NCBI GenBank assembly: GCA_021780675.1
Contig: JAJXYH010000004.1
Location: 5,668 to 69,667 of the forward strand
Origin: a bacterium
GTDB taxonomy: Bacteria; Patescibacteriota; Microgenomatia; Levybacterales; UBA12049
Direction of reading: 5' to 3'
DNA length: 64,000 nt
The translations under genes and the position numbers were made by a program. Under the pieces are notes generated by a model that worked only from the letters and a program-made list of their open reading frames with translations, had not been told where the DNA came from and did no database searches. Below are positions 23,191 to 46,071 of this stretch, in pieces. Every line of letters begins with the position of its first letter. Within the stretch, counting starts at the first letter, position 1.

Positions 23191-24492
23191 TTAAGGTTTA
23201 ATTAATTTGAATCCTCTTGTTTTTACTGTCTGTAGTTCAAAATTACTTTTTTGCAGTTTTAATTTTGTCCTTACTCTTCCCGCCAACTTATCAATTGCCC
23301 AGTCTGAAATTCCAAGCTCTGTTGCCTCCGGCCAAACAGTTTCTACAATTTTGTCCCTTTCACAGATTTGATTTTCATTTTCTTTTAAGTAATCAAAAAA
23401 TAGAAGTTCTTTTTTACTGAACTCTGCTCCGCTGTCTTTTGCCTCTTCCGTTACTCTTTCTTTAACAAAATATGAAAATAATGGGCTAAATATGTTATTT
23501 ATACCTGATCTTTGTATTACCATACCAACGTCCCAAAGATATGAAGCTTTATCTTTTTCCTGTTTTGAAACTCTATTGCCAGAGGAAATTTTAACCAATA
23601 TTTTTTGCTCATTCGTTGTTAAACTTTCCCAAATTTCTTCCGATTGAAGTCTAATTCTTTCATCACCAAGAAGAATTCGCTTTATGTCTTCTTGTTTTGA
23701 TATTTTAATCTCAGGATTGTGAAGTGCAATTAATCCAAGCTGGGCGTACTGAAAGTGACCATCAACAAGTTTTAAAAAGAATTTTTCAAGATCATCTGTT
23801 AATTTAACTTCATATCTTTTTTTATAAAGCCTTAATAAAATTAAACTATCGTCTTCTGCTGAAGGTTTAAAATAAATATTTTTGTAAAGAATTGATAAAG
23901 AAGAATTTTTATTAAGCTCGGGAGACAGATCGTTAAATGGAAGAAAACTGGTAAAAACATAGGTAAGCTGATAATGGGTAAATTCTCTAAGCCCTTCAAG
24001 GTTTGCAAATAATTGTGGTGTTAAAGCATTTTTTAACCTGTCAAACTTAATAAAAAATATTGTAGGAAGAAATCCTTCTTCTATAATTTTTTTAATAGAA
24101 AGCCTTACCGAGTCAATCGTAAAGAATAAATCTTGCAGCTGTATGCTTTCTAAAAAAAGTCCTCTAATTTCATTTTTTACACCCTCGTTAATATTTGAAT
24201 TTTCAATTGAGTCTACAACCCTTTTTAATGTAAGTGTCCAAAAGGGAGCTATGTCGCATTCTATTAAATCGTTTAAATTAACCGGTATAAAAAGGTGTTT
24301 GTCAGAATCTTGGAAATAGTTCTGAACTACATCCTTTCGGTTAATAAAAAAACTTAAAAAATTACCAATCCCAACTCTGGTAATGCCGATTAAAACAATT
24401 GATCTCCTGTTTGAAATATGTCCTGCCAAATCTTTAGCATCTTGGTATCTAAATATTAACGGTTGTTTATAGAGTACAGATGTCTTATCCAT
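23191..24492 (-). CDS. transcriptional regulator: N-terminal AAA-like NTPase domain (degenerate Walker A) fused to C-terminal OmpR/PhoB-type winged helix; paralog of 40480-41913
   Basis: C-terminal DKIVETVWPE...DWAIDKLAGRVRTKL...LQTVKTRGFKL is a trans_reg_C-like wHTH. N-terminal GITRVGIGNFL and FFIKFDRL resemble Walker A/B. Confidence 0.5.
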   Translation of the reverse strand: MDKTSVLYKQPLIFRYQDAKDLAGHISNRRSIVLIGITRVGIGNFLSFFINRKDVVQNYFQDSDKHLFIPVNLNDLIECDIAPFWTLTLKRVVDSIENSNINEGVKNEIRGLFLESIQLQDLFFTIDSVRLSIKKIIEEGFLPTIFFIKFDRLKNALTPQLFANLEGLREFTHYQLTYVFTSFLPFNDLSPELNKNSSLSILYKNIYFKPSAEDDSLILLRLYKKRYEVKLTDDLEKFFLKLVDGHFQYAQLGLIALHNPEIKISKQEDIKRILLGDERIRLQSEEIWESLTTNEQKILVKISSGNRVSKQEKDKASYLWDVGMVIQRSGINNIFSPLFSYFVKERVTEEAKDSGAEFSKKELLFFDYLKENENQICERDKIVETVWPEATELGISDWAIDKLAGRVRTKLKLQKSNFELQTVKTRGFKLIKP

Positions 24493-29370: not shown

Positions 29371-30729
29371 ATGCAAGACTATAAAGATACTTGGAATAAG
29401 ATTCTAGCAGAGGTTGAACTGGAGGTATCCAGAGCTAACTTTCTTACGCTTTTTAAAAGAACGCAAATCCTGTCTATTGAAGACGGGGTAGTGACAATTG
29501 CCGCACCGTCCGCAATGATTGTCGATCTTTTGCAACGAAGGTTTTATGAAGTAATTAAAAAATCAACCGATAAGCATGTTGGGGAAAACTCAAAGCTTGT
29601 TTTTGTTCCAAAAACAATCGCTGAAAATATTGAAAAAGTACATGATGATCCCAATACTCTTTTTGCCAACAGTGGTGTTCAAAAGACAAGTTCTGTGGCA
29701 AGACCCCCAAGAGTAAGAGTAGATTATACTTTTGAAAACATGGCAGTTTCTTCGAGTAATCAACTCGCTTTTGTTAGTGCCTCAACTGTTGCAAAAAAAC
29801 CGGGCGATACCTATAACCCCTTGTTTATTTATGGCCCAACAGGGGTTGGAAAAACCCACCTTATGCAGGCAATTGCAAATGAAGTTTTTAAAAATAAACC
29901 AAATGGTAAGATTTTGTATACGACCAGCGAAGAGTTTACCAACGAAGTTGTTGAGGCCATAAGAACCAACAATACACAAAACATGAAGAAAAAATTTAGA
30001 GATTTGGATTTACTTATTATCGATGACATTCAGTTTGTAGCCGGCAAAGAGAGGGTTCAAGAAGAGCTATTTCACACCTTTAACACGCTCGTTGATAAAA
30101 ATTCACAGATTGTTCTTTCATCCGATAGAAGGCCTGAAGAAATTAAACAGGTTGAAAAAAGGCTTATTTCTCGGTTTTCCGGAGGTTTAACTGTTGACGT
30201 TGATATTCCGGATTTTGAACTTCGAACTGCAATACTTTTAATAAAGGCTAAAAAATATGATTGTGAGTTAAGCATAGATGCTGCAAAACTTATTGCACAA
30301 AAAGCCTCTGATGCAAGGGGATTAGAAGGACTTTTATTAAGAATAATTACCCAGGCACAAGCGCTTAATAAAGATATCGACGAAAGTTTAATCTCTTCTG
30401 TTTTGTCTCTTAGTAGGGACGAAAAAATTAACTCTTTTCATCCCGATGAATTAATTAAAAACATTTGTAATTACTACAATGTTAAACCAACACAGCTTAA
30501 AAGCCCCAAGAGGGATGCTTTTTTGGTTAGACCAAGACAAATTGCAATGTATTTATTAAAAAAAGAGGTTGGCTTAACATTTGTTGAAATTGGTAACCTT
30601 TTGGGGGGGAGAGACCACACAACTGTTATGCACGGAGTTGAAAAGGTGGAAAACCTTTTGGAAAACCCCTTAGTTTCAGAGGATATCATGAGGATAAGTA
30701 AAAATATTGTTGATAAAAATGTGGATTAA
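29371..30729 (+). CDS. dnaA: chromosomal replication initiator DnaA
   Basis: Walker A GPTGVGKTHL, Walker B LLIIDDIQF, C-terminal DNA-binding domain (GGRDHTTVMHG). Confidence 0.9.
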   Translation: MQDYKDTWNKILAEVELEVSRANFLTLFKRTQILSIEDGVVTIAAPSAMIVDLLQRRFYEVIKKSTDKHVGENSKLVFVPKTIAENIEKVHDDPNTLFANSGVQKTSSVARPPRVRVDYTFENMAVSSSNQLAFVSASTVAKKPGDTYNPLFIYGPTGVGKTHLMQAIANEVFKNKPNGKILYTTSEEFTNEVVEAIRTNNTQNMKKKFRDLDLLIIDDIQFVAGKERVQEELFHTFNTLVDKNSQIVLSSDRRPEEIKQVEKRLISRFSGGLTVDVDIPDFELRTAILLIKAKKYDCELSIDAAKLIAQKASDARGLEGLLLRIITQAQALNKDIDESLISSVLSLSRDEKINSFHPDELIKNICNYYNVKPTQLKSPKRDAFLVRPRQIAMYLLKKEVGLTFVEIGNLLGGRDHTTVMHGVEKVENLLENPLVSEDIMRISKNIVDKNVD

Positions 30730-30857: not shown

Positions 30858-31964
30858 ATGAAAGTATCTTTTCTTTCAGATAAACTTCAAGAGAAGCTTG
30901 CCTTTTTAAACCATGCTGTTTCCATAAGAGGACAGCTTCCAATCCTTTCTTGTTTTTTAATAGAAGCAGGTAAAGGAAAACTTCATATAAGCTCAACGGA
31001 CCTAGAAATAGGAATAACTTCAAGCATAGCCGCAAATGTTGAAAAAGAGGGAAAGGTTGCAATACCAGCAAAAAATTTTACAGATCTTTTATCTAATCTG
31101 GAAAATAAAAAAATAACTCTGGTTCAGGAAGGAGAGGTTTTAAATTTGACAGGAGAAAAAGTTAAAGCGTCGTTTCAGATTATGAATAACGAAGAATTCC
31201 CCAAGCTATACGAAGACGAAGGAGAAATGATAGTATCGTTAAAACCTGAAGAAATAATGAAATACTTTCAAAGAGTAGGGTTTGCTGCATCTTCTGTTGA
31301 GACCTCTCGCCCGGCACTATCGGGGGTTCTTTTCGACAAGGAGAAAGAAGGGGTAGTTGTGGTAGCAACGGACAGTTACAGGCTTTCTTTACAGAAAAAC
31401 GTTTTCAAGACAACACAAAGCCTTAAAAAGCCACTTGTAATACCGTCTAGAGTAATTAGAGAATTAATGTCGATAAAAACAGATGGAACAATAAAAGTAC
31501 ATGTTTCCGAAAAGAATAATCAAGTTTTGTTTTTAACTCAGGAAACAGTTTTGGTGGGAAGACTCATAGAAGCGGAATACCCCGAATATCAGAAAATAAT
31601 TCCAAACGAATTTTCAACAAAAACAGAAGTAGGAAGAGAGGATCTTCTTAAAGCAGTTAGAATTGCATCTGTTTTTGCAAGAGAGACAGCAAACATCGTG
31701 AGGTTAATAATTGAAAAGTCAAAAATTACTGTTTCTGCAAATTCACCGTCGGTTGGGGAGGATGCCGTAGAAATTGAAGCTAAAACTACGGGGGAAAACA
31801 ATGAAATTGCATTTAACGCAAAATACCTTTTAGATATACTTTCAATTCTTGACGTAGAAGAAGTTGTATTTGAAATGAATAATCCTTTAAGCTCGGGGGT
31901 TTTTAAAATTAAAGGAGACAACTCCTTTCTACATCTTATAATGCCGATTAGGGTACAGGGGTAG
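30858..31964 (+). CDS. dnaN: DNA polymerase III beta sliding clamp
   Basis: 368 aa, three-domain clamp. Conserved LSGVLF, ATDSYRL and IMPIR motifs. Confidence 0.9.
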   Translation: MKVSFLSDKLQEKLAFLNHAVSIRGQLPILSCFLIEAGKGKLHISSTDLEIGITSSIAANVEKEGKVAIPAKNFTDLLSNLENKKITLVQEGEVLNLTGEKVKASFQIMNNEEFPKLYEDEGEMIVSLKPEEIMKYFQRVGFAASSVETSRPALSGVLFDKEKEGVVVVATDSYRLSLQKNVFKTTQSLKKPLVIPSRVIRELMSIKTDGTIKVHVSEKNNQVLFLTQETVLVGRLIEAEYPEYQKIIPNEFSTKTEVGREDLLKAVRIASVFARETANIVRLIIEKSKITVSANSPSVGEDAVEIEAKTTGENNEIAFNAKYLLDILSILDVEEVVFEMNNPLSSGVFKIKGDNSFLHLIMPIRVQG

Positions 31965-32370: not shown

Positions 32371-33510
32371 TTACTGTATCGGCCTAACCGGTACAAGCCA
32401 GTACCAACCAGTACCACCTAGGTATGCAGAATACCATTTAAATTCATTAGACAAAGACGTACAGCCATTTGGATCTCTCACGTGTATATCCACACCTCCT
32501 GAGGAATTAATTCTAACATCATCAACAACAAAAGAATGACCTCCATTAATTGGGGGCCAATAAGCACCAGCAAACAATAGATATCCATTGCTCAAATAAC
32601 TTTTAGCTTGTGTGTAATTTATTGATTGAGAACCAGACTTTAGATTTACGTGTGGATCTTCATATCCAAGAGACTTAAACCAGTTATCTTTTTGGGTAGA
32701 AAATGTCCAAAAACTTGTTCCCGTACGACCGCTTCCCGGTAGGTTGGACCACCCGTTTGTGTCAAAATCAGCCGCAATTTCTGCAGGTCCATGCGTGTCG
32801 CAATAGCTACTCATAATCATTGCCAAGCTGGTTGGGCCACAACCGGTACTAGCAATTGTTCCCGAATCAAAACGCCTACTTGAATAACTTTGCCCCCACT
32901 GACAATAAAATTTATTTGTTGGAGAAGCTTTGCAACCCGAACCTGGTGGTGTGGATGAGGACCCCGAACCGGGAGGCAGGCAACAGATTAAACCCTGCCC
33001 ACAAACTAACCCTCCGGTATCTTGTACCATTGGGGGAGTCAAGGTTGTGCAATCAGTGCCGGCAGGCTTACATAAAGAACCTGTAACGGATGAGCATTGT
33101 GTTGATTGGTTATTAGCTGTTGTTGTTGGTTGACCAGTAATAACAGTTATGATTGCAGTAAAAATGATTACCACCAGTATAACTACTACCACAATTAAAA
33201 CAGGAATAATCCAGGCAGGTGCAGAAGAGACAATTACCGTAGCAATTCGTCTTTTAACCTCTTTTTTTACCCTATCTTCCAGTTTGTTTTTTGCAGCACC
33301 ACCGATATTTCTTAACGTTCCTCCTCCTGGAATGTTGCCACCACTCTGTCTTCCAGACGCTTCGTCGTTGGTGTTACCGCTCCCTATATTTCCCGTAAGA
33401 TTTCTGGACAACCTATTAATTTTAACACCCTGTTTTAAAGTGTTTGGTTTATTTACGCCCTGTTTTAAGGTGTTAGGTGTAGGTTTTCCCGAACTACTAC
33501 TGTCTGCCAT
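32371..33510 (-). CDS. membrane-anchored C39-like/CHAP-like cysteine peptidase domain protein (candidate cell-wall hydrolase of the T4SS-like locus)
   Basis: CQWGQSY...STGCGPTSLAMIMSSY (Cys nucleophile in a C39/CHAP-like context) and a downstream GGHSFVVDDV His. N-terminal tandem repeat KPNTLKQGV x2, one TM, Cys-rich linker. Confidence 0.5.
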   Translation of the reverse strand: MADSSSSGKPTPNTLKQGVNKPNTLKQGVKINRLSRNLTGNIGSGNTNDEASGRQSGGNIPGGGTLRNIGGAAKNKLEDRVKKEVKRRIATVIVSSAPAWIIPVLIVVVVILVVIIFTAIITVITGQPTTTANNQSTQCSSVTGSLCKPAGTDCTTLTPPMVQDTGGLVCGQGLICCLPPGSGSSSTPPGSGCKASPTNKFYCQWGQSYSSRRFDSGTIASTGCGPTSLAMIMSSYCDTHGPAEIAADFDTNGWSNLPGSGRTGTSFWTFSTQKDNWFKSLGYEDPHVNLKSGSQSINYTQAKSYLSNGYLLFAGAYWPPINGGHSFVVDDVRINSSGGVDIHVRDPNGCTSLSNEFKWYSAYLGGTGWYWLVPVRPIQ

Positions 33511-33529
33511 AAATTAATAATACCAGATT

Positions 33530-35392
33530 TTAATCATTTACAATGTTTGGATGTGGTGAAGACGCAGGCATTGGGTCCGGAAGCTCAATGGGTTCTTCTT
33601 GCGGATTTTCTTCAACAACATCCTCAACCTCTTGCGGCTTCTTATCCTTATCTTGCGGATTAGTAGAAATCATATCATGTTCAAAAGGCGCTGCAACTAC
33701 TTGCATTGCAACGTGATTTTGCCCTGCGAAAAACAAACCCTCACCAATATTTGCAGACAGGAGTAGTTGCTTTTCTCCAACAGTTAAATAAAAAATATCA
33801 GCAATCATATCAACCTCTGCAGGACTTTGTTTTAAAAGCATTTGGATAGAAGAGTTGGAAAGCACAGCTTTTCCATAGTCGGTTGATAAAAAATCTTCGG
33901 CATCTTGAGTTGCTGTAGTTAATGCAAGATAGTATTTTCTTGCTCTTTTAGCAACACCATACACAAATGAGGCGGAATCTTCATGCTTCATCATATACCA
34001 GGCTTCATCAAGAATTAATAAGCGTTTTTTTAGGGTTTTTCTTACCTTTGTCCAAACAAAATCTAAAATTATATGCATTGCAATTGGTCTTAATTCATCC
34101 TCCAAAGCCTTAATATTAAAAACCGTAAAAGGATTGGTAATATCAAAGTTCGACTGTTGGTTAAAAAGGCCGCTTAGGCTTCCTTTAATAAATCTTTCCA
34201 GGCGTAAAGCAAGGTCTTTAGCCGCGTTATCTTCCATTCCCAAAAGAACTTTATAAAGATCTTCCATTAGTGGTGGGGTTTTCTTTTGTGTTTCAGGGTC
34301 GGTGGTAATTCCTTTTAATCTGTATGTTTCAACGAGTGCCCTATCTAAAATTGCATCATGTTGAGCATCAAGCTCACCAAGGACTATTTTTAAAAGTCCG
34401 TGTAGGGATAAGATTTTTAAACCAAGTTCATTTTCATCTTTTTCATAAAGTCCGGAAAGATCAAATGGGTTGATTTTTATATTTGAGCTTGATGCAAAAG
34501 TTACCTCCTCGCCACCCACAAGCTCTGATAATTTAGAATATTCACCTTCAGGATCTATGATTATGATTTCTGCACCAAACATAAAATTTCTTAATGCCTC
34601 AAGCTTAATTAAATATGATTTTCCCGCCCCCGATTTTCCAAACACAACTTCATTCGCGTTTTCCAAACTGAATCTATCAAAAATGATTAATGAACCGTTT
34701 TGTTGGTTTATCCCATACATGATTCCTTTATCTTGGGCCAAAATGGCTGAGGTAAAAGGAAAGGTTGAAGCAAGCGATGTGGTATCCATATTCCTGGTTA
34801 TAAAAAGCTTATCTTGACCAAGTGGGATGGTAGACTTAAACCCTTCTTCCATTTGAAGGGTTGCGGGTTTTGGAACCATAAGGATTGAGCTTAGTGTGGT
34901 TGTAAGTTTTTTAGAAGCTTCGTTTAAGTCCTCCAATTTTTCGGAAAAAAGCGTAATATAAAGACTAAATTGGAAAAATCTTTCCATGCCTTTAGCAAGT
35001 TCTTCTTGAACCGCAAGAGCATCTTCTAAAGAGGCGGAAACCTTTGGGTCTACCTGAAGACCTTCTTCTTCCTGAGAATAGATAGTCGCCTCCATTTCGG
35101 TAATTTTTCTTCTAAGATCTGATAAAACATCTGCAGAAGAAGTTGGATATAAGAACATAGAGACATTCATTGAATGATCAAAATTAATTAATGGCTCGAG
35201 CCAGTTTGCGGAAACAAACCTCGGATACCCAACAACAAACAAAGTTTTGTAATATTTTTCTCCTACGCGAATATGGTTAAAGTCTACTTCAACAGAAGGA
35301 GGCGCGATAACATCAGGAATAGAAACCAAATCTCGCTTGATATCTGGTTGTGCATCGTCGTTTTTTACAGTATTTTTTTTGCCGAAAGTCAT
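33530..35392 (-). CDS. virB4: VirB4/TrbE/CagE-family type IV secretion ATPase (ATPase part)
   Basis: IRVGEKYYKTLFVVGYPRFVSANWLEPL motif, Walker A FGKSGAGKSY, Walker B LLILDEAWYMM (DEAW). Confidence 0.75.
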   Translation of the reverse strand: MTFGKKNTVKNDDAQPDIKRDLVSIPDVIAPPSVEVDFNHIRVGEKYYKTLFVVGYPRFVSANWLEPLINFDHSMNVSMFLYPTSSADVLSDLRRKITEMEATIYSQEEEGLQVDPKVSASLEDALAVQEELAKGMERFFQFSLYITLFSEKLEDLNEASKKLTTTLSSILMVPKPATLQMEEGFKSTIPLGQDKLFITRNMDTTSLASTFPFTSAILAQDKGIMYGINQQNGSLIIFDRFSLENANEVVFGKSGAGKSYLIKLEALRNFMFGAEIIIIDPEGEYSKLSELVGGEEVTFASSSNIKINPFDLSGLYEKDENELGLKILSLHGLLKIVLGELDAQHDAILDRALVETYRLKGITTDPETQKKTPPLMEDLYKVLLGMEDNAAKDLALRLERFIKGSLSGLFNQQSNFDITNPFTVFNIKALEDELRPIAMHIILDFVWTKVRKTLKKRLLILDEAWYMMKHEDSASFVYGVAKRARKYYLALTTATQDAEDFLSTDYGKAVLSNSSIQMLLKQSPAEVDMIADIFYLTVGEKQLLLSANIGEGLFFAGQNHVAMQVVAAPFEHDMISTNPQDKDKKPQEVEDVVEENPQEEPIELPDPMPASSPHPNIVND

Positions 35393-36051
35393 TTTTCCAA
35401 TACCTCCTGCTCTGATGGCTTAACTAAATTTTCCGCCTGCTCAAAGTTAATATTGGCATCGTTAAATATTTCATAAAAAAGTTTTACTAATTTTTCCTTT
35501 CCCAGTATTTCAGCTCTTAAATTAACTCTTCCTATTTGGTTTAATAATCCTTCTGCTTTTGAGTGTAGGGCAGATTTTGCGCCAACCGCAAATAAATTTT
35601 GCTCAGAATTGACTCCCATTTGTTGAGAAACTCCACCGATACCGCTTTCCAAAGAAGAATAATAAATCACAATATAGAATTTTTTGTCAAGAATGGTATT
35701 AACCTTCACAAGTTCGGAGATAAAATCTTTATACATTGAGATATATTTTGAGAATAATGGATTTTTTGATTGTTGTGCCTCGTCTGCTAAGAGCTTTATA
35801 TACGATGAAATATTTACCCTTTTACTTCTTATGATTATTTGTACAGGGTAGGATATTGAATTCAAAAGCGCAGCATAAGCATAAATTTTAGCATCCTGTT
35901 CGTCAGGTGAAAGAAGTGCAAAGTTCGTGGCACTTATTTCAAGGACAATACATGCATAACCACCATTTAAAATTACCACATCATCAACAATATCCTGGAT
36001 TTCGGTAAATTTTTGGGTTGAGTTAGATAATTTTTGGGCAGAGCCTTTCAT
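35389..36051 (-). CDS. VirB4 N-terminal-domain-like protein (probable split N-terminal part of VirB4)
   Basis: The pattern VDDVVILNGGYACIVLEISATNFALLSPDEQDAKIYAYAALLNSISYPVQIIIRSKRV follows the CagE_TrbE_VirB N-domain logic. ATGA overlap with the downstream ATPase ORF. Combined length ~840 aa, close to canonical VirB4. Confidence 0.4.
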   Translation of the reverse strand: MKGSAQKLSNSTQKFTEIQDIVDDVVILNGGYACIVLEISATNFALLSPDEQDAKIYAYAALLNSISYPVQIIIRSKRVNISSYIKLLADEAQQSKNPLFSKYISMYKDFISELVKVNTILDKKFYIVIYYSSLESGIGGVSQQMGVNSEQNLFAVGAKSALHSKAEGLLNQIGRVNLRAEILGKEKLVKLFYEIFNDANINFEQAENLVKPSEQEVLEK

Positions 36052-37382
36052 TAATTAAAAAGAGACCTCCTTAATTCTTCTCTTGTATCTATTGATATAA
36101 TTTCAAGCGGCATAATTATTTCACCGGACGCTTTAAATCCTACCGTTTCAAACTTATTTTGTCCTCTTGGATCTTCAAATTCTATACTATAGTCACCGTC
36201 TGTAAGAGCAGTTGCAGAAGCAAATTGTCCCAAAGCGTTTGTTTTAAATGCCCTGACGGCATTTCCCTGTAAATCTTTTACCTCAACCAATATATTTGGT
36301 AGGGGGTTTCCTCTTGGATCTTTAACGATACCAGAAATAACATTTGGAAATTCAGGGGCAGCAACTAAACCAACACTTTTGGTTAAGTTTTGCGGAATAC
36401 TTCTCACTAATTTTGCTTCCTGTGGTTGTAGTTGTGCAATTTGTGGTATAGCAATATTTTGATTTTGCGAAGTCATTTGCTTTTGAATTTGTACTAATTT
36501 ATCTTCAAGTTGTTGTTTTTGAAGCTGCATATCGCTTAAGCTTTGCTGAAGTTCTAAAACTTTTTGATGGGCTTCTAAAAATTGTTTTTCATCTTGCTGC
36601 GAAACTGTTTGTAATGGCGCAGGTTGCGGCGGAGCGGGTAGTGGAGTAGTGGCTGTATCCGGTTTAGGCTTTAACTGCTGTGAGACGTCTTGAATTATTT
36701 CCGGAGTTTTTATTGTGGTGTCTATGGTATTTATAGCTGCTGCTGGTTTAACAGGGCTTGTAATATTGGGTAAAGTTGCCAGCTGTTCCACCGCTTCAGG
36801 TTGCGGAGCTTGATTTGAGTATGCGTGCTGCGGAATATAGCTCGGTAGGTTAACAGGCGTTCCACTTTTTTGATAATGATCAACATTTTGTAAAAACACC
36901 ATTTCTTTTTGGTCAAGCTTGCTGGCTGATTTGGGAAGTGTTTTCAAAAAACTTTGAAGCTGCTGATCGGACATATCAGAAATAGTTTGACGTTTTTTTG
37001 CAAAGTCACTAATTTTTTTTACCTCTTGTTCTTGTAACCCCTCCGAACCCTGTTGATAAATATATTGAGTAGGCTTAGTTAGGGCTTTTATTAAATGCGT
37101 TATCATTACATCAAGCGGCCTTCCGTCTATTGGTAAAAATGCCAAAGAGGCTCCCATAGCGGCAGAAAGAACAGCAAGGGGTATTTTAAGTAGAAAAAAA
37201 AGCGGAGAAATGTAAAAAACCCAAGCAACTATAAATCCCGCAGTAAGGTAGCCGAATTGTTTTATGGTCATACTCCCAATTAGTTTAAACTGGAATCCCG
37301 TAATGTCTTGTGGTATCGGATGGTTTTCGATGTCCATATAAAAAAGCATATAACGTGAAAAATCTGGTTTCAAGAGAATCAA
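36051..37382 (-). CDS. PrgI/VirB3-like membrane protein fused to Q/P-rich coiled region and a C-terminal carboxypeptidase-regulatory-like (transthyretin-fold) domain
   Basis: N-terminal IPQDITGFQFKLIGSMTIKQFGYLTAGFIVAWVF resembles the PrgI family. C-terminal GIVKDPRGNPLPNILVEVKDLQGNAVRAFKTNALGQFASATALTDGDYSIEFEDPRG resembles the CarboxypepD_reg fold. ATGA/ATG overlap with the next gene. Confidence 0.45.
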   Translation of the reverse strand: MILLKPDFSRYMLFYMDIENHPIPQDITGFQFKLIGSMTIKQFGYLTAGFIVAWVFYISPLFFLLKIPLAVLSAAMGASLAFLPIDGRPLDVMITHLIKALTKPTQYIYQQGSEGLQEQEVKKISDFAKKRQTISDMSDQQLQSFLKTLPKSASKLDQKEMVFLQNVDHYQKSGTPVNLPSYIPQHAYSNQAPQPEAVEQLATLPNITSPVKPAAAINTIDTTIKTPEIIQDVSQQLKPKPDTATTPLPAPPQPAPLQTVSQQDEKQFLEAHQKVLELQQSLSDMQLQKQQLEDKLVQIQKQMTSQNQNIAIPQIAQLQPQEAKLVRSIPQNLTKSVGLVAAPEFPNVISGIVKDPRGNPLPNILVEVKDLQGNAVRAFKTNALGQFASATALTDGDYSIEFEDPRGQNKFETVGFKASGEIIMPLEIISIDTREELRRSLFN

Positions 37383-37431
37383 AGTGGGTCAAAAGTCTTT
37401 GAAAGTATATCTAAATTTCCGTGAAAAATTC

Positions 37432-37752
37432 TTATCCGCAAGTTCTGAATGAGAATTCAAATGAAGTGGTGTCAATACACCCAACCCCTGTTACACTTCC
37501 TATAAATTTAATGATGAAAAATGACAGCATTACTAAAACTAACCCTAACACGGCAAAGGCAATTGTTTTTCTGGCTTGGTCAAGTTTCTTGGGATCACCC
37601 CCCGAAACTAAAAACCGTATTCCACCTATGATAATAACAATTACGGCAATAGATCCGGACAGTAAAATTCCCCAGTAAATAAAATTTAATATTATTATTG
37701 GTATACAACTAATTGTTGCAACCCCATTAGAACTACACGTTCTCCAGTCCAT
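37432..37752 (-). CDS. VirB2/TrbC-type T4SS pilin-like protein (short paralog)
   Basis: Shared C-terminal module: TM...SGGDPKKLDQARKTIAFAVLGLVLVML. Confidence 0.55.
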   Translation of the reverse strand: MDWRTCSSNGVATISCIPIIILNFIYWGILLSGSIAVIVIIIGGIRFLVSGGDPKKLDQARKTIAFAVLGLVLVMLSFFIIKFIGSVTGVGCIDTTSFEFSFRTCG

Positions 37753-37803
37753 GATTTAAGCTTAAAAGAAATAAAAACAAATTGCAAGTAGGTTTAGTTA
37801 TGT

Positions 37804-38202
37804 TTAGAAAGCTGTGGAGCCATTAATGTTTGGAATGACGACATTAGACAATGTATTAAGTCCAAAGAACTGGAGTATTAAGTTCAAAACCAAGTATGAA
37901 AGGAATATGATTACCAAACCAACGATTGCTGCAACAATATGTTCTCTAGCCGAAGCAACAGCTTGTTTGTCTCCGCCGGATGTTAACCATTTAAATCCTC
38001 CCCAAACAAGATAGAGAAGTGCAACTAAAATTGCTACTGCAAAAATTAAAGCAATCACAGTACCAACGATTGAACCGATATTATTGGAGCTTAAAGCACA
38101 AAGATGATTATATGGTCCTGCACATGCATCAACAGCAAAAGCAGGAACTGTAACTGTAAGAAATACTGCTGCGGGGGTAACCAGTGCGATTGCTTTTTTC
38201 AT
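37804..38202 (-). CDS. VirB2/TrbC-type T4SS pilin-like protein
   Basis: Signal peptide (AFA-VD). C-terminal LYLVWGGFKWLTSGGDKQAVASAREHIVAAIVGLVIIFLSY. Confidence 0.6.
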   Translation of the reverse strand: MKKAIALVTPAAVFLTVTVPAFAVDACAGPYNHLCALSSNNIGSIVGTVIALIFAVAILVALLYLVWGGFKWLTSGGDKQAVASAREHIVAAIVGLVIIFLSYLVLNLILQFFGLNTLSNVVIPNINGSTAF

Positions 38203-38271
38203 GTATATATTTATACTAATAAAGTTTTGATTTGTTTGTCAAGTACCAATTTAGCTTCAATTTAACATTAA

Positions 38272-39003
38272 TTAAAGAGTCGGTACGTTAAAAAACTGTA
38301 AGATAAGATTTACAATCAAAGCAGCAAGAAATACTATAATCAAACCAACGATTGCAAAAATAACTTTTTGTCTGGCAGAGGTTAAAGTCTGTTTGTTTCC
38401 ACCGGACATTAACCAGTCAAATCCTCCCCAGACCAGGTAAAAAAGCGCAAGAAGAATTGCAATTACAAACAAAATGTTTATTCCGAAGGCAAGAGCAGTA
38501 TTGTATTTTACAATAGGTACTCCGCCCGGCTGTCGCGCTTTAAAGAAATTTGCCAAAGTATCTAAAGCAACTGCGGGATTAACTTCGCCCCAATTCCCCC
38601 AACTGTTACCGGTTTGAGTACCATTATTATTTGAAATACATCCTGCAGAATGATCACATTTGTCTCCGGTTGAGCAGGTTAATGTTATTATATTGCAGGT
38701 TGTTCCTTGTGGGGCACCACTGCTTGGAAAGCAATTCTGAGTGGTTCCTTCCCAGTTGCAGTTTTGTGGACAGGTTTTACAATTCCCGCCAGAAGCAACA
38801 CAACAAACTCCCAATCCACCCTGACCACCTAATGAACAGACCCTAGTACTATCAACATATTGATTCGCTTGGCCACAAGTTGTTACACCGTTTGCTACGC
38901 AATCCAGGCATCCTGGAGGAAGGAGCGCTCCTTGGGCAACAGGGGTTTTAATCACGAAAATAAATAATAATAAAAAACTAAAAAAATAAAATAATTTTTT
39001 CAT
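38272..39003 (-). CDS. VirB2/TrbC-type pilin-like protein with Cys-rich N-terminal ectodomain
   Basis: Signal peptide, ~25 Cys in the ectodomain. C-terminal FYLVWGGFDWLMSGGNKQTLTSARQKVIFAIVGLIIVFLAAL. Confidence 0.6.
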   Translation of the reverse strand: MKKLFYFFSFLLLFIFVIKTPVAQGALLPPGCLDCVANGVTTCGQANQYVDSTRVCSLGGQGGLGVCCVASGGNCKTCPQNCNWEGTTQNCFPSSGAPQGTTCNIITLTCSTGDKCDHSAGCISNNNGTQTGNSWGNWGEVNPAVALDTLANFFKARQPGGVPIVKYNTALAFGINILFVIAILLALFYLVWGGFDWLMSGGNKQTLTSARQKVIFAIVGLIIVFLAALIVNLILQFFNVPTL

Positions 39004-39005
39004 AA

Positions 39006-40454
39006 TTATTGATTAAAAATATTTAATATATCAACTCCAATGAAATTCATAAGGGTAAATGTAAAAATTATTAGAACCAGTCCTACAATTGCTGCAGTTA
39101 ATTGCTCCTGCGCATCTTTAGTTTTTTCGGGGTTTCCTTGTGAAACTATTAATTTATAAGCGGAGTAAATTATTAAAAGTGTTGCGATTCCGCCTGCAAT
39201 AGATAAAATAATTGAAAAGATTTTTGAAACTAACCCCTGAGAATCAGTGCTAAAATTACCAAATGCTGTTGGGCAAGTTGTTATATATTTCCCGTTCACA
39301 AGGGTTGTCGTGCAGGGAAGTTGACCGTTGGTAAATCCAGAACCAAGCCCCCCTCCACAACCAACCCCTTCAACGCACTGACTGGAGCTACAGCTTTGGT
39401 AAGTTGGAGAAGTAGTCAAAGCGGGTATATCTGGATGACTTTGTCTAGTACATTTTTGATTTTCCTGATTGGCAAGACTATTAAAAGTATAACCGCTAGG
39501 GCAGACAGCACAGTCTGTTCCTCCTCCTCTGCAGTGTGTTGCAGTACAGTCTGAAGCGCTGGTATAAGCCCCTGTCCCCGTACCTGTATGCACTACGCAT
39601 CCATATTGTGTGCAGTCATACCCGCCGCGGTTTGCATCAGCAGACCAAGTGCAACAGGTTTGAGTTGCGGCGCTTTGGCTTTTGCAGTAGGCGTTTCCAC
39701 TTGAGGTTATAATTCCCCCTGCTTGATGGCAGACGTTATTATTAGCTACACACTCTCCATCTCCTCCAGCGGGTGCAAAAGACTGGCAGGTTGGCGGTTC
39801 ACACTTGTTGGTTTTTAAATTACAGGTGTAACCTGTGTTTGCCCCACTACAGCTTCCATCAGCATTAGCGCTACAGGAGACTGTTAAATTGCAGTTCTTA
39901 TTGTAAACTAATCCACAATTTTTTGTGCCGCAAATTGCTGCTTGAGTGCAGCTTGGTGAAACGCATTTGCCGCTTCCCTGGTCCCATGAATAACCAGAAC
40001 TGCAAAGGCATTCTAAAATCGGTACCGCACCCGATTGGTTTGAATCTATACAGTTTAAACCAAGATTTGGTTTACATTGATACGTTCCATCGCAAGATTG
40101 ACCATAAGTTTTGTAATATGTGCAAACTCCAGTAGTTTTATTGGTATAAGCGAGAATAGAATTGCACGTACACATGCCATTTGGAGTGTAATATGTGGTG
40201 CAAGTTTGTTTACCTGTTGTGGGGTCGGTGACACATGTTTCATGTGAAGTATCTGTAGGGTTACTACAATACGTTGGGTAGCAACAAATACCAGGTGTTG
40301 CACCGCACGGCGCATTGGTGTTGGGCGTGCAATCTACCGCGGCAGCTGCCCAGGCATTATTTTTTAAAGGGGCTAAAGTAAAAAATAATATAAATAATAA
40401 AATTGCAGGAAACAAAAACTTAAGCAAACGCTTCATAAAATTATAGTAGAACAA
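39006..40454 (-). CDS. VirB2/TrbC-type pilin-like protein with large (~400 aa) Cys-rich ectodomain
   Basis: Signal peptide, about 60 Cys. C-terminal AYKLIVSQGNPEKTKDAQEQLTAAIVGLVLIIFTF pilin module. Confidence 0.55.
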   Translation of the reverse strand: MFYYNFMKRLLKFLFPAILLFILFFTLAPLKNNAWAAAAVDCTPNTNAPCGATPGICCYPTYCSNPTDTSHETCVTDPTTGKQTCTTYYTPNGMCTCNSILAYTNKTTGVCTYYKTYGQSCDGTYQCKPNLGLNCIDSNQSGAVPILECLCSSGYSWDQGSGKCVSPSCTQAAICGTKNCGLVYNKNCNLTVSCSANADGSCSGANTGYTCNLKTNKCEPPTCQSFAPAGGDGECVANNNVCHQAGGIITSSGNAYCKSQSAATQTCCTWSADANRGGYDCTQYGCVVHTGTGTGAYTSASDCTATHCRGGGTDCAVCPSGYTFNSLANQENQKCTRQSHPDIPALTTSPTYQSCSSSQCVEGVGCGGGLGSGFTNGQLPCTTTLVNGKYITTCPTAFGNFSTDSQGLVSKIFSIILSIAGGIATLLIIYSAYKLIVSQGNPEKTKDAQEQLTAAIVGLVLIIFTFTLMNFIGVDILNIFNQ

Positions 40455-40479: not shown

Positions 40480-41913
40480 TTAGTCTACGAATTTAAAACC
40501 ACGCCCTTTAACAGTTAAAATATGAATTGGGCTGTTAGGGTTATTTTCAATTTTTTTTCTCAACCTAAAAATTAATTGATCTAAAGCCTGGTCGGTTACA
40601 CCCAACGTGGTTTTTTGGTTTCCCCAAACAGCGTTAATGATGTCTTCTTTTTCTAAAATCTTTTCTTTCTGAGAGATTAAAAATTTTAATAACTTAAATT
40701 CGGAAGAAGTTAAATTATCGGAAATTACACCTTCGCCCAGTTTAATTTCATTAGTGTTTTCATCAACAGTTAATTTAAGACCGGTTTTTACAGTTTGGGA
40801 TTTAATAATTGCGTTTTTAATAAATTCTCCAAATAGCGGAATTGTTACTTTTCCACCGGAAACAAGGAAGATTTTTTCTAAAAAAGGTTGTTGTTCTTTG
40901 TTGTCGATAAAATATTGCTGCTCTGAAGGGTTTAAACTGTTCCAGATAGAGAAAAGCGAGCTTCTTACCGGGCGCTGTGAAAGCAAATAAGTTATTAATT
41001 GGTTGTTTTCGGAAATTAATTTTTTTTCGGCGGTAAGTGCCGATTCAAGCGAAAGAATGGTTAGTCTTCCGTGTCCTGCAGTTAATTTTGATATTTCATC
41101 AAGCATTTTTTTATCGACTTTTTTATTGATTATTTTTTCAAGATATGAAATTCTAAAATCAAGACCCGGCTTGTCTAAGATGGGCAAATAGATAATTTTT
41201 TCCGCCAAATATTCAAAAAAATCGGCAAAAAGCATTGGTTCAGTTACATCTTCGAGGGGTTTATTTAAAGAAAATACAGCAGAAAAATAATATTTTGCCC
41301 TGTTTCTTAAAACTCTAAGGTTGGCAAAAAATTCGTTTGTGAGCATCGGAATATATTCTTCGAATCTATCAAAAAGGAGAATCAGTTTTAAATTTCTTTC
41401 AACACATAAATAGTCAATTGTTTTTTTAAGGCCTGCAAAAAGCACCATTTCATCGTTGAACCCGATACTCTCTTTAAAATAGTTATTAATTACTTCGTAC
41501 TCTTTTTTTAAACCTCTTTCGCGCAAGGAATCTAAAATTCCCAAGAAGATAAATTTATTTGCATCAAATAACGGTCTTTTTCTAATTTCGGAAAAGTTTA
41601 AAAGGACAAAATGAAAATTTTTCTGATTTTCCCCAAGATGAATAAGTCTTACTTTTTTATTGTAAGAAAGGAGCCCCAAAAGATTAGATCTGCCAACACC
41701 CGGAATAGATACGACTTGACAGGAATTGCCCTCTTTTATAAATTTGAGAATTTTTTCAATTTCTTCAAATCTTGAATTTTGCGGGTATAAACTTTCGAAA
41801 TGTTCTGTTTCCATAAAGATATTGTAATTTTTTTGTAATACAAATATCAAGCTAAAAAATTCCCGCGGATTTAAAATTTTGGCATATGAAAGAACGCGGA
41901 GATGAATTGACAA
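40480..41913 (-). CDS. transcriptional regulator: AAA-like NTPase domain (GVGRSN Walker A variant) + C-terminal OmpR/PhoB-type winged helix; immediately upstream of pilin operon
   Basis: VVSIPGVGRSNLLGLL, LILLFDRFEE. C-terminal INAVWGNQKTTLGVTDQALDQLIFRLRKKI...ILTVKGRGFKF. The true start is probably the internal METEHF. Confidence 0.5.
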   Translation of the reverse strand: MSIHLRVLSYAKILNPREFFSLIFVLQKNYNIFMETEHFESLYPQNSRFEEIEKILKFIKEGNSCQVVSIPGVGRSNLLGLLSYNKKVRLIHLGENQKNFHFVLLNFSEIRKRPLFDANKFIFLGILDSLRERGLKKEYEVINNYFKESIGFNDEMVLFAGLKKTIDYLCVERNLKLILLFDRFEEYIPMLTNEFFANLRVLRNRAKYYFSAVFSLNKPLEDVTEPMLFADFFEYLAEKIIYLPILDKPGLDFRISYLEKIINKKVDKKMLDEISKLTAGHGRLTILSLESALTAEKKLISENNQLITYLLSQRPVRSSLFSIWNSLNPSEQQYFIDNKEQQPFLEKIFLVSGGKVTIPLFGEFIKNAIIKSQTVKTGLKLTVDENTNEIKLGEGVISDNLTSSEFKLLKFLISQKEKILEKEDIINAVWGNQKTTLGVTDQALDQLIFRLRKKIENNPNSPIHILTVKGRGFKFVD

Positions 41914-44282
41914 ACCAGGCTAATTCCTTTAGTCTTGAAGGAAGAGGAGGTATTATGCCGGACGGAGGAACACCAGAACAACCAGAGCCAAATTTAAGTC
42001 CAGAAATAAGCGGAGATGCGTTAGCGTCGTCAAATAATTCTGTTGCAAGACTTGAAGAGTTAGCGGGAGAAGGCTCCGGAGAGAGAATTAGAGAAGAGCA
42101 AAAAAAATCCCAAAGAAAATTTTTGGAAAGTCAAGAATCCGATAGGCTGCCAAGATCATTTGAAGACTTGGTCGGGAAAATAATGAATTCGGCAGAAGCG
42201 CAGTGGAAAGAAGATGGAGATCAGGCATTAATAGATAAAGAGGGAAATATTAATAAAGAAAATTTTTTAGCCTGGGTAAGAGATAGGATGATGTGGCTTC
42301 ATGATTTTAATTCGGTTACTGAGACCAGCTTTTTTTCCGACGTTAACATAACTGTTGGTTATGCCAAAATTACCCTTTACGATATGATTTTTACCGGTAA
42401 ATACTTTTTACACGAAGTAAAGGGTAATGATGGAAATATTTCTTACCATAAAAGTGATGATCTTGAAAAACTTAAAGATCAGCTTATAAACGAAGCATTT
42501 CTTTTTGGAAATTCCAGAAATAATGATGTTAAGTATAAGTCGATGATGCCTAATGAAGCAGAACTTCCAAAACTCTTGCAACAAATATATTTTGCTAACC
42601 CGTTTTTAAGAGGCAGCAACTTTCAGGATATTTTAACACTTAATTCTGTTGATAAAAATAGAATTCAACAGCTAAGAGATGAATCCGGCAATGTTGCAGA
42701 GTTTGATAAAAACAGGATTAAAAATCTGGTTGAAAAAGATTCAAGTGTTGGAGAAGGGGTAAGAAGAGCACTCCTTGCCTATTACCACATACGTGATATT
42801 GAGATGCTTAAAAAAATATTTGAGGTGGAGGAAGGTAAAAAAATTCAGAATTTAGCTCTTTTTATGGAAGGATACGATGATTATGATTCAAAAACTTTAA
42901 GACTTGCAGTTGATGAAAATGGCGCAAATAAACCTAAGAAAAAGGGTGAAGCAAATCAGGATTTAAAAGACACAGAAGCAGCGGAAAATATCCCCGATGG
43001 GGAAAAAACTTCAGTTGAATACGATAGCGATGGGAAAGTTAAGTTAGATACTAAAGCCCAAATCAAACGATTTACGGATTATATGAATCCATTTAATTTG
43101 GCCAGAAAAGAGGAAAGACAAGAAGGTGAAATTCGGGAAAGAATTAGGCAATCAATAATGCAGGTAACAGGACTTACTTATTCGGAAGCAAAATATGCAG
43201 AGTCATGGGCGTATTCAATGGCCAGATGGACGGGAATTGGCGCAAGAAACGATACGGGAGCCGCTGCATTTGATGCATGGAGTAAACCGCAAAATTTACT
43301 TCCATACAGACTTAAGCAGCTGGAAGATAAAAGACTGGGTGTATTTGGGAATAAGTTTAATCTGGCAGGAATTAAAAGAGCAGGACTTACGATGTTTGAG
43401 GGGATTTCCGATATCCATGGCAGAAATATTATAGAGGCAATTCAGGGAGGACAAGGAATGGAATTTAACGCAGATAATCCGTTTAAAACCACAGATGCAA
43501 AAACAAATCTTGCTTTTGGAAAAGATACAGGAAGCTTTTTTGTTAGTAATCATGTGATGAACTCATTTAAGATCTACGATTTTATAATTAACCATACAGA
43601 CTTTAATATCGAAGATATGATTACATATGATACTTTTGGAAGGCCGATAATCGACCATGAAAAAGCGGATAAAATAATTGATGGTATTCAAAAGGCTATC
43701 AGGTACGCGTATTGCACATGGGATGGGATAAACTACAACAAATCTATAAGAGTTATGGAAAAAGATGTGGATGGAAACGATGAAATAAAAGAAATGCCAC
43801 TTATTGCAGCGATGTTTGGACCCGATATTTTAAAAATGATCCAAAACGATATTAGTGAGAGGGAAGCAAGGCTTAAGCCAGGAGAGTCTTTAACACGGGG
43901 CGTAAGAACTAATATTTGGACAATTGCTCCTGATCACGATAATTTCCAGATGGATATGGAAAAAGTACAATCGAAAGCTGTTAGGGAAGTGCTTTGGAAA
44001 AGTATATTACAGTACTTAATCGCAGAAGAAGTACATTCACATAGAAGCAGGGCCAGTGAAGAAACAAGGTATGGCTATGATATGGTAGAAAAGGTGTACG
44101 ACTTCTTAAGAAGAAAAGGCATTGCCGATAAAGCGGAAATTGATGAGATGCGAAAACTTAGTAATTCTACTCTTAGGGTATTAAATATAGAAGATTTTGT
44201 AATGGAGGCAGGTAAAGGAACACTTAAAGGTTTTTGGAGTATGATGAGAATAATAATGAGCGGTCTTATGACAGGGAAGTAA
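41886..44282 (+). CDS. large soluble hypothetical protein (798 aa), divergent from the regulator
   Basis: No TM and no recognisable catalytic motifs. Acidic N-terminus. The start may be the downstream MPDGGTPEQ. Confidence 0.4.
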   Translation: MKERGDELTNQANSFSLEGRGGIMPDGGTPEQPEPNLSPEISGDALASSNNSVARLEELAGEGSGERIREEQKKSQRKFLESQESDRLPRSFEDLVGKIMNSAEAQWKEDGDQALIDKEGNINKENFLAWVRDRMMWLHDFNSVTETSFFSDVNITVGYAKITLYDMIFTGKYFLHEVKGNDGNISYHKSDDLEKLKDQLINEAFLFGNSRNNDVKYKSMMPNEAELPKLLQQIYFANPFLRGSNFQDILTLNSVDKNRIQQLRDESGNVAEFDKNRIKNLVEKDSSVGEGVRRALLAYYHIRDIEMLKKIFEVEEGKKIQNLALFMEGYDDYDSKTLRLAVDENGANKPKKKGEANQDLKDTEAAENIPDGEKTSVEYDSDGKVKLDTKAQIKRFTDYMNPFNLARKEERQEGEIRERIRQSIMQVTGLTYSEAKYAESWAYSMARWTGIGARNDTGAAAFDAWSKPQNLLPYRLKQLEDKRLGVFGNKFNLAGIKRAGLTMFEGISDIHGRNIIEAIQGGQGMEFNADNPFKTTDAKTNLAFGKDTGSFFVSNHVMNSFKIYDFIINHTDFNIEDMITYDTFGRPIIDHEKADKIIDGIQKAIRYAYCTWDGINYNKSIRVMEKDVDGNDEIKEMPLIAAMFGPDILKMIQNDISEREARLKPGESLTRGVRTNIWTIAPDHDNFQMDMEKVQSKAVREVLWKSILQYLIAEEVHSHRSRASEETRYGYDMVEKVYDFLRRKGIADKAEIDEMRKLSNSTLRVLNIEDFVMEAGKGTLKGFWSMMRIIMSGLMTGK

Positions 44283-44286
44283 TTAT

Positions 44287-46071
44287 TTAAGATCTAATTA
44301 TCGGTTTTCCATTTCGATCAACTAGCCCCGTCCCGCCCGTGTCTGTTCCCCCTGTAATATTAGATTCATTAGGTTTTTTTCCAGTAATTTCTTCATGCAC
44401 CGCTTTTAATTGGTCATGTCTGCCGGAAGCTGTTGCGACTTCTTGCGAGGACGGAGTTCTGGCTACAAAACCGGTTGCTCTTTGCAGTGCATTCCTTTGG
44501 ACTGTTTTAGATGACTCATTATAGTTTCCGGCTGTATATCTTTGTAGCCTGCTTCCAACAAAACCTCTCATTTGATTTGTTCTTGGATCTCTATAGTACA
44601 TTCTGGATGCAACACCCCCGGCAAATCCTGCAACAGCTGCTTGTCCTGTGCCAACGCCGCCCATACTAAGCCCACTACCTCCTGCGCCAAAGGTTTTTCT
44701 AACCTTTTCGACAATGCTGGGTGATGCGAGAATAAAACCAACTGCAATTAAAGCTCCATACATTGTCTGATTCCCTCCACCTGTTACATTTCCAATTATG
44801 GGGGGGTTAAACATTGTACCGGCATTTGACTGCGACAGCGCGTCCATGATAGTTCTTGCGACAATAAATACAAATAAGGTTGCAGGAAATGGCGCAAGAT
44901 TCCCGGCCATATTTTTTATCCAGGAGGTAAAACCTAAGCTCCCACTAGCCCCGGGTATAAGACCACCCAGAATCCATAAAGGAGCCAAGATTGTTCCAAG
45001 CAAAACATTGATAAAACATTTAAGAAGCGCAAACCAAAGCCTAAACAGGGCAACAATAACGGCAATTACAAAAATAAGAAATACAATAATCCCGGCAATA
45101 AAACCAATAAGACTTGCAATTAAATGCCAGAAAGCATCCATAATCGTATTAACCCAACAGCCTAAGAAAAAGCATCCCTGACTAGAATTATTATCGGTCA
45201 TTGCTCCAGAAACTTGGTTGGATGCCAGAACATTATGTACTAGGCTTCCAACACTCGAAGCAGCTGAGGCAGAAAGACCTAAAATTCCACCATCTTTTCC
45301 GCCAAACATATCATTAGTAAATCCAATACTTGACTCCGTTGCCCACTTAGATATATCTACGTGTTGTGCATTAGGAGTTAGCGTATCAATTACCAAAAAA
45401 TTAGTAACCCACATGGCATCTATTAAAAGTCCGGCAATTGCATAGGAAAAAGTGATCATTACAAGCCCGATAATAAGTTTTGGAATTTGGTTTTGGATTG
45501 TCATAACAGTTCGGGGGTCAATTCTTAAGCGTAGCATTATTGCAATCCCTACAATTATAAAAATCACCATCATTAGAAGGTATGCAAGATTTCTAAAAAT
45601 TGTAAACAAACCAAGAACAGGTGATAGTCCTACAAAACCAATACTATTGTCCGCTGCATTTGCAGTTTTTACAATACCGAAATTATTTGCAGCATAGGCA
45701 ATATAATCGGAAGTATGTACGGGTATTAAATAAGTTGCGGTAAGTAAATTTCCCATCATGCCTATTGCTCCTCCACCACTTTCTTTAACAAAGCCGATTC
45801 TTCCGGTATTTTTATCTATTCCGAGACATGATTGTTTTGAATTTATAGGATCAATGCCTGTAAGTTGGCAAATCATAGAAGACATGGTTTCAATCATTAC
45901 ATTTTGAGTCCAGGTATGTAAATTGACCGGAACATTAGGATCCATATTGGATGAAAGCGTTTGCTTAAGTTGAGTGGAAGAGCTCTGAGCAAACGACTTG
46001 TGGGGGCTGATAATAAAAACCAATAAAATAAAGGCAAAAAACAAACCTAAGACCTTGGCAGCAAACCTCAT
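44287..46071 (-). CDS. VirB6/TrbL-like polytopic membrane protein
   Basis: Signal peptide (SFA-QS), at least 7 hydrophobic helices, Gly-rich C-terminal tail. The assignment rests on architecture and context only. Confidence 0.4.
   Translation of the reverse strand: MRFAAKVLGLFFAFILLVFIISPHKSFAQSSSTQLKQTLSSNMDPNVPVNLHTWTQNVMIETMSSMICQLTGIDPINSKQSCLGIDKNTGRIGFVKESGGGAIGMMGNLLTATYLIPVHTSDYIAYAANNFGIVKTANAADNSIGFVGLSPVLGLFTIFRNLAYLLMMVIFIIVGIAIMLRLRIDPRTVMTIQNQIPKLIIGLVMITFSYAIAGLLIDAMWVTNFLVIDTLTPNAQHVDISKWATESSIGFTNDMFGGKDGGILGLSASAASSVGSLVHNVLASNQVSGAMTDNNSSQGCFFLGCWVNTIMDAFWHLIASLIGFIAGIIVFLIFVIAVIVALFRLWFALLKCFINVLLGTILAPLWILGGLIPGASGSLGFTSWIKNMAGNLAPFPATLFVFIVARTIMDALSQSNAGTMFNPPIIGNVTGGGNQTMYGALIAVGFILASPSIVEKVRKTFGAGGSGLSMGGVGTGQAAVAGFAGGVASRMYYRDPRTNQMRGFVGSRLQRYTAGNYNESSKTVQRNALQRATGFVARTPSSQEVATASGRHDQLKAVHEEITGKKPNESNITGGTDTGGTGLVDRNGKPIIRS

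Follow-up and report, generated by a model that had tools for sequence, protein, structure and literature searches.

A conserved VirB3/PrgI subunit extended by a tether, a coiled coil and a C-terminal beta-sandwich in a chromosomal type IV secretion locus of Microgenomatia

Among the subunits of type IV secretion systems (T4SSs), VirB3 is usually the smallest and the one that tells us least, yet across the class Microgenomatia it carries a module conserved to the level of the system's ATPase. We describe this elaboration in a stretch of 64,000 nucleotides, hereafter the window, from a bacterium of the order Levybacterales (assembly GCA_021780675.1, contig JAJXYH010000004.1, positions 5,668 to 69,667). 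There, a gene of the minus strand encodes a VirB3 subunit of the PrgI family that continues far beyond its membrane hairpin and ends in a beta-sandwich of the carboxypeptidase regulatory type. The fusion is genuine, conserved and widespread in this one bacterial class. The added region may act as a cytoplasmic adaptor of the secretion motor, as we discuss below. An earlier interpretation made from the letters alone (the sequence-only reading) had singled out the same gene, and had seen in it a possible strut across the periplasm or the cell wall.

The open reading frame (ORF) runs without interruption from 36051 to 37382 on the minus strand and, taken mechanically from a TTG codon at 37382, gives 443 amino acids (aa). 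Homologues begin at the equivalent of M16 of this frame (MENHPIPQD...), which favours the ATG at 37337 as the likely true start. The coding sequence would then be 36051-37337 (minus strand), with 428 codons followed by a stop, for a protein of about 47 kDa, a length shared with homologues that carry both Pfam domains. Residue numbers given here refer to this 428-aa product, except for Pfam spans, which follow the numbering of the 443-aa frame. The Pfam PrgI family (PF12666) is matched over its entire model (positions 1-91 of 91, aa 22-109) with 35.6 bits for a cut-off of 27 (E 1.4e-8). CarboxypepD_reg (PF13620) is matched in part, over model positions 2-57 of 82 (aa 349-405), with 34.5 bits for a cut-off of 32.3 (E 2.7e-8). 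Both curated thresholds are thus passed, and the similarity to PrgI/VirB3 on which the sequence-only reading had staked its case is real. The VirB3-type N-terminus that it proposed rests on the full-model match and on a membrane hairpin, its transthyretin-like C-terminus on the second Pfam match, the predicted structure and matches of fold, while the two motifs that it had cited, GIVKDPRGNPLPNILVEVKD and DGDYSIEFEDP, are both present in the protein. The gene lies directly upstream of genes for a TrsD-like protein and for VirB4, as expected of virB3, and in 71 of the 77 loci that were fetched the succession pilin, elongated PrgI, TrsD, VirB4 is the same. Where the protein departs from its family is in size: a canonical VirB3 has 10-15 kDa and short cytoplasmic termini (PMC12857230), and the sequence-only reading was right to see an architecture foreign to canonical T4SSs.

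A search of 5.8 billion proteins returned 2,166 homologues. The best 120 of these measure 392-432 aa and all except one (119/120) carry both Pfam domains; some bear the NCBI label 'PrgI family protein [Patescibacteria group bacterium]'. When each GTDB species was scanned through a single genome, 115 loci were confirmed, and the informative record titles among them name nearly always Candidatus Levybacteria or Levyibacteriota. When the most divergent locus (L077, 28% identity) was used as the query, the architecture came up in Gottesmanbacteria, Shapirobacteria and other Microgenomates, in proteins of 273-537 aa, and the wider relatives that share it span 238-537 aa overall. The fusion is therefore spread through the class Microgenomatia, mostly in Levybacteria as far as the named GTDB-species loci are concerned. 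Many records of metagenome-assembled genomes with the locus (L005, L007, L011 and others) are titled 'uncultured Gammaproteobacteria bacterium', which is probably a placeholder of bulk submission or a mislabel.

Could a sequencing or assembly frameshift have joined a short prgI to a separate beta-sandwich gene, as the sequence-only reading had itself considered? We give this explanation practically no chance. Assemblies from JGI, ENA, NCBI and Logan supply over 2,000 independent proteins with the same continuous frame, 77 of 77 fetched loci have it intact, and nothing was found in favour of an artefact. Nor did phmmer, run over the full library with the C-terminal 133 residues as query (170 representatives at E<=1e-30), yield any convincing stand-alone copy of the C-terminal module, its short matches being N-truncated fragments. 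In about 139 of the best 150 matches the module stands at the extreme C-terminus of proteins of 133-535 aa; the remaining 11 are giant repeat proteins. These giants (P0241-P0247 and others; 1,000-5,200 aa) contain 8-27 tandem copies of a sandwich 31-46% identical to the PrgI C-terminal domain. By sequence, no proteins beyond the family are closer, and the domain may have its evolutionary source in them. At the lower end of the size range, a complete member of 238 aa (P0339) has the hairpin, the sandwich and the tail, with about 45 residues of tether and no coiled coil.

The anatomy of the protein was derived from an AlphaFold2 (AF2) model built on an alignment of 43 sequences (mean pLDDT 68.7), together with hydropathy and conservation; identities are given as mean pairwise values across 72 genomes of the Levybacteria-type set. 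All segments that follow are on the minus strand. The PrgI/VirB3 module (residues 1-94, 37056-37337) opens with the invariant motif ENHPIPQDITGFxFKLIG (88% identity) and continues with a transmembrane (TM) hairpin and a helix. The two helices of the hairpin (residues 25-43 and 48-66, 37140-37265), evident in hydropathy and modelled with pLDDT >90, are joined by a loop of about four residues with a near-invariant Lys. A short helix follows at residues 74-87, in the succession that characterizes PrgI and VirB3. Hydropathy along the whole protein revealed a single hydrophobic block (residues 28-70) and no second segment of this kind. Next comes a region rich in K and R with a conserved LDKKEMVFFQSL motif (residues 103-157, 36867-37031), modelled as three helices of lower confidence (pLDDT 55-68). 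It gives way to a disordered tether rich in P, Q, A, E, K and T (residues about 158-245, 36603-36866; pLDDT <50), which is highly variable: its identity is 24%, and its length ranges over 46-102 residues in the 72-member set and from about 45 to more than 300 among wider relatives.

After the tether comes a conserved heptad coiled-coil helix (residues 248-290, 36468-36596; AHQKVLELQ...QKQQLExKL), predicted as a single helix with pLDDT 86-90. In 72 family members, L, I, V, M or F occupies the a/d positions 260, 263, 267, 270, 277, 281, 284 and 288, the hydrophobic periodicity has its power peak at 3.5 residues, and one position of the core is polar (Q-K). The low-complexity spacer rich in Q and P which the sequence-only reading had placed between its two domains is, as a consequence, three things: a helical region, a disordered variable tether and a conserved coiled coil. 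Its description fits residues about 158-245; it fails for the very string that had been quoted for it, QQLEDKLVQIQKQ, which lies inside the conserved 43-residue coiled-coil helix. Beyond the coiled coil, residues 311-414 (36096-36407) fold in the model into a seven-stranded Greek-key beta-sandwich of the prealbumin/CnaB/CarboxypepD_reg type (pLDDT about 90, 68% identity), a placement backed by PF13620 and by matches of fold. Structure prediction delivers both the N-terminal hairpin and the C-terminal sandwich at high confidence. The sandwich displays the near-invariant surface motifs KDPRGNPL and VRAFKTNxLGQFASAT. A sequence profile search of the PDB gave weak matches to the SdrD B domain and to a carboxypeptidase M domain, and no T4SS chain; likeness to VirB8 or VirB10, sought by sequence and by fold, was not found.

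The protein ends with an amphipathic helix, D-x-RE(E/D)LR(R/K/Q)xLF (residues 415-428, 36054-36095, minus strand; AF2 helix 418-427), with 72% identity. Here coding and regulatory information overlap. The codons AGG AGG of its conserved Arg-Arg pair (36054-36070, minus strand) double as a perfect Shine-Dalgarno sequence, AAGGAGG, placed 12-17 nt ahead of the trsD start, and one might have thought that the tail is conserved solely on behalf of this embedded signal. This is ruled out: related loci keep the motif with other codons (CGA AAA, AGA AGA, CGC AGG and others), and it is also kept where trsD starts 100-500 nt downstream. Because the motif persists without those codons or that proximity, the constraint acts on the protein, and the ribosome-binding site is a local by-product. 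At the other end of the gene, the 94-nt gap that separates it from the last pilin gene (37338-37431, minus strand) is devoid of a Shine-Dalgarno sequence. It holds a weak promoter-like site (TTGAAA-17-TATGCT) whose end is 8 nt from the ATG, a hint of a short-leader or leaderless transcript; a scan for promoters and terminators around the gene gave no more sites than shuffled sequence.

On which side of the membrane does this long extension lie? Roughly speaking, we hold a cytoplasmic position to be fairly probable and an external one to be rather improbable. A protein with a single two-helix hairpin has both of its termini on one side. In the R388 system, VirB4 is cytoplasmic and VirB3 wraps around its N-terminal domain, in a 1:1 ratio with the central hexamer (PMC9259494). 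Natural VirB3-VirB4 fusions are found in CagE and on Campylobacter plasmids (PMC4643968), and their existence shows that the C-terminus of VirB3 faces the cytoplasm and tolerates fusion. A review describes short cytoplasmic extensions of VirB3 at both ends and a predicted 1:1 PrgI-PrgJ complex (PMC12857230). By analogy, we infer that the termini of the elongated PrgI are cytoplasmic and bind the N-terminal domain of VirB4.

The external alternative is the strut of the sequence-only reading. The hairpin would be N-out/C-out, the tether and the coiled coil would cross the wall, and the sandwich would sit at or beyond the peptidoglycan or S-layer, where it might replace an absent stalk of the VirB8/VirB10 type or anchor the pilus. 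We consider this unlikely. It requires the N-terminus of VirB3 to be outside, contrary to the contact with VirB4 and to the natural fusions just cited. The distribution of positive charges in 43 homologues (on average 2.0 K/R ahead of TM1, 1.0 within the loop and 4.9 over the 40 residues that follow TM2) lends modest weight to an in/in topology; the net-acidic N-tail weakens this charge-based argument, and could in principle be translocated. Composition points the same way as the charges: the extension has a single Cys in 22,881 residues (72 members) and VirB4 0.09% Cys, as against 2.9-8.7% in those proteins of the locus, pilins and peptidase, that are exposed. Conservation does likewise: sandwich (68%) and tail (72%) rank with VirB4 (71%) and above TrsD (52%), so that the extension is as conserved as the cytoplasmic ATPase. 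Both ends of the protein behave as core parts of a machine, unlike surfaces that face a host. The spread of tether lengths, from about 45 to more than 300 residues, suggests a flexible leash better than a strut of fixed length, and the complete 238-aa member dispenses with the coiled coil.

Several points weigh against a cytoplasmic extension and speak for the strut. Nearly all structural neighbours of the sandwich are surface pilins, adhesins or secreted enzymes, and prealbumin, CnaB and CarboxypepD_reg domains are overwhelmingly extracytoplasmic. The nearest relatives outside the family are the repeats of giant (1,000-5,000 aa) proteins of surface-like aspect. A tether rich in Pro, Thr and Gln, a coiled coil and a globular head are also typical of the wall-spanning PrgL/TraM, VirB10 and TonB. 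Finally, homologues of VirB8 and VirB6 are scarce in Microgenomatia (PMC12102498), which leaves the external role vacant. In our judgement the single hairpin, the VirB3 precedents, the K/R pattern, the near absence of Cys and the variable linker nevertheless disfavour the strut.

We propose that the long extension of this VirB3 is a cytoplasmic adaptor, held on a tether, that works at the TrsD/VirB4 ATPase, a proposal to which, as a whole, we would grant an even chance. Residues 1-95 would fulfil the canonical role of VirB3, with the flanks of the hairpin binding the N-terminal domain of VirB4, here the separate TrsD-like protein. The remaining 330 or so residues would be a lineage-specific addition on the cytoplasmic side, in which the conserved coiled coil would pair or bundle neighbouring copies of VirB3. 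The 1:1 ratio of VirB3 to the central VirB4 hexamer in R388 would mean that about six sandwich domains, each on its tether, surround the TrsD/VirB4 motor. These could hold the ATPase in a clamp or regulate it, or else capture a substrate or partner and pass it to the entrance of the channel, thus serving a cluster that would have no coupling protein of its own.

A more sober variant, which we regard as quite improbable, keeps the extension in the cytoplasm and makes it purely structural. The coiled coil and the sandwich would only oligomerise VirB3, for example as three dimers per hexamer, and template or stabilise the ATPase ring, with neither substrate nor regulatory function. The conserved heptads with their polar Q-K core position, the hexameric state of VirB3 in R388 (PMC9259494) and the high conservation of the terminal module would all suit such a scaffold. 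It would have no need of a long variable tether, however, and P0339 drops the coiled coil while it keeps the sandwich and the tail. Judged by this natural member, the sandwich and tail, rather than oligomerisation, appear to be what is indispensable. More boldly, and with correspondingly low confidence, the sandwich and terminal helix could be a cytoplasmic substrate receptor or gate that in Microgenomatia replaces the coupling protein at the VirB4/TrsD motor or, alternatively, VirB3 could be inverted to form a wall-crossing stalk. If the former were true, the receptor would mark what the T4SS of Patescibacteria transports; if the latter, the inverted VirB3 would be the stalk of a monoderm, pilus-bearing T4SS.

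The setting of the gene is that of a T4SS cluster. Its pilin, PrgI, TrsD-like, VirB4 and C39-like genes are all on the minus strand. The TrsD-like protein (35389-36051, minus strand; 220 aa) resembles the N-terminal domain of VirB4 (NF045975 positions 98-238, E 1.7e-11; TrsD NF041427, E 1.5e-4), and its start overlaps the stop codon of PrgI (TAATG). The VirB4 ATPase (33530-35392, minus strand; 620 aa) is of the CD1110/MPF-FATA type (NF045971, 387 bits for a cut-off of 325) and has a TraG P-loop domain; its start overlaps the TrsD-like stop codon in turn (ATGA). VirB4 is thus split in two over 33530-36051 (minus strand), the 220-aa TrsD-like protein corresponding to the N-terminal part of the model and the 620-aa piece beginning at about model position 180-280. 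The C-terminus of the latter (about aa 575-620) is a low-complexity tail rich in Pro and Glu. Upstream of PrgI, four genes (37432-40454, minus strand) encode proteins of 106, 132, 243 and 482 aa, each with a C-terminal T4SS_pilin (VirB2-like) domain (PF18895 in 4/4) and with Cys contents of 1.5-8.7%. Two of them (38272-40454, minus strand) are unusual 'decorated' pilins with large Cys-rich N-terminal regions, the 482-aa protein having 42 Cys and the 243-aa protein 14. Downstream of VirB4, a membrane-anchored, Cys-rich protein (32371-33510, minus strand) has a Peptidase_C39_2-like domain (PF13529, 26.7 bits), which makes it a candidate wall-remodelling component of the VirB1 type. In Southlakia, essential peptidase and lysozyme genes are found downstream of virB4 (PMC12102498).

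Further upstream, a polytopic membrane protein (44287-46071, minus strand; 594 aa) has no family match; going by its signal peptide and numerous hydrophobic helices, it could possibly be a highly divergent VirB6. Two proteins (40480-41913 and 23191-24492, both minus strand) have a C-terminal winged-helix DNA-binding domain of the OmpR/PhoB type without a receiver domain, and the first, which adjoins the pilin array and has a weak AAA-like N-terminal region, is a possible regulator of the T4SS. Several large ORFs have neither a Pfam nor an NCBIfam match (41886-44282, plus strand; 44287-46071, minus strand; 47180-48901, minus strand; 52649-55627, plus strand). Among the ORFs of the window scanned against Pfam and NCBIfam, several large ones matching nothing, no relaxase or coupling-protein (T4CP) family was matched; the other matches are to housekeeping genes. 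A tblastn search of 72,556 plasmids returned no relative, and a search of PHROGs no match. A tmRNA gene (62619-63032, minus strand; 102.8 bits) and six tRNA genes confirm an ordinary chromosome. The genes dnaA (29371-30729) and dnaN (30858-31964), both on the plus strand, lie about 400 bp beyond the cluster, which is for that reason close to the replication origin. The T4SS reported for Patescibacteria comprises VirB4, TrsD, PrgI/VirB3 and VirB2-like pilins without a relaxase, often near dnaA (PMC10633639; PMC12102498). With its MPF-FATA-like VirB4, TrsD, PrgI and pilin array on the chromosome near dnaA, the present locus is this published relaxase-less system, here in a Levybacteria-like member of Microgenomatia.

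With reference to the literature, a beta-sandwich on PrgI is mentioned neither in the two studies of Patescibacteria T4SSs (PMC10633639; PMC12102498) nor in the 2025 nomenclature review (PMC12857230). Terms for carboxypeptidase or transthyretin have no occurrence in PMC12102498, and a literature search retrieved no paper combining 'carboxypeptidase regulatory-like' with T4SS or VirB3. This class-wide, conserved elaboration of VirB3 is visible in the domain tables of databases and goes undiscussed in the T4SS literature searched. In Southlakia ML1, the single species tested, epibiotic growth requires the Patescibacteria T4SS (PMC10633639; PMC12102498), a system with no relaxase and no dedicated coupling protein. 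The C-terminus of VirB3 offers a concrete handle on it, in that whatever binds the sandwich and tail could point to substrates or regulators.

Compared with PrgI of pCF10 and with the VirB3 proteins of R388 (TrwM) and A. tumefaciens, the protein shares the full-model Pfam match, the two-helix membrane hairpin followed by a short helix, and a gene that directly precedes the VirB4 module and is coupled to it in translation, with VirB2-like pilins nearby. It differs by its 428 residues, where canonical members have about 100-130 (117 for PrgI) and short termini, by its added parts (tether, coiled coil, beta-sandwich and conserved C-terminal helix), and by the presence of a separate TrsD-like protein between VirB3 and VirB4. 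The VirB3-VirB4 fusions of H. pylori (CagE) and of Campylobacter plasmids also carry a large domain on the C-terminus of VirB3. In these, however, the fused part is the VirB4 ATPase; here VirB4 has its own gene, and what is joined to VirB3 is an unrelated run of tether, coiled coil and sandwich. The order of parts (anchor, Pro-rich spacer, coiled coil, globular C-terminal domain) recalls the VirB8-like PrgL/TraM and VirB10/TonB (PMC12857230). Those spanners have a single N-in/C-out TM helix and heads of the NTF2-like or beta-barrel kind; with its two-helix hairpin and prealbumin-like head, the elongated PrgI does not have the make-up of a VirB8-like or VirB10-like envelope-spanning subunit. 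As for CarboxypepD_reg, transthyretin-like and CnaB domains, with which the sandwich shares a PF13620 match above the cut-off, they typically belong to secreted enzymes, TonB-dependent receptors and Gram-positive surface proteins, while here the domain is the C-terminal head of an inner-membrane T4SS subunit, with motifs of its own and an appended helix. A parallel comes from Saccharimonadia, where the T4SS of Ca. Southlakia epibionticum ML1 has the same order of PrgI, TrsD-like and VirB4 genes. Its essential PrgI family gene, SEML1_0010, has 903 bp (300 aa); the PrgI domain covers aa 5-90, and the C-terminal region is helical (PMC10633639 supplement). That extension has ECOD matches of the TFIIS/KIX-like kind and no reported beta-sandwich, so that Saccharimonadia bear a different addition on VirB3. 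An extended VirB3 seems, then, to be general in Patescibacteria, with C-terminal modules specific to each class.

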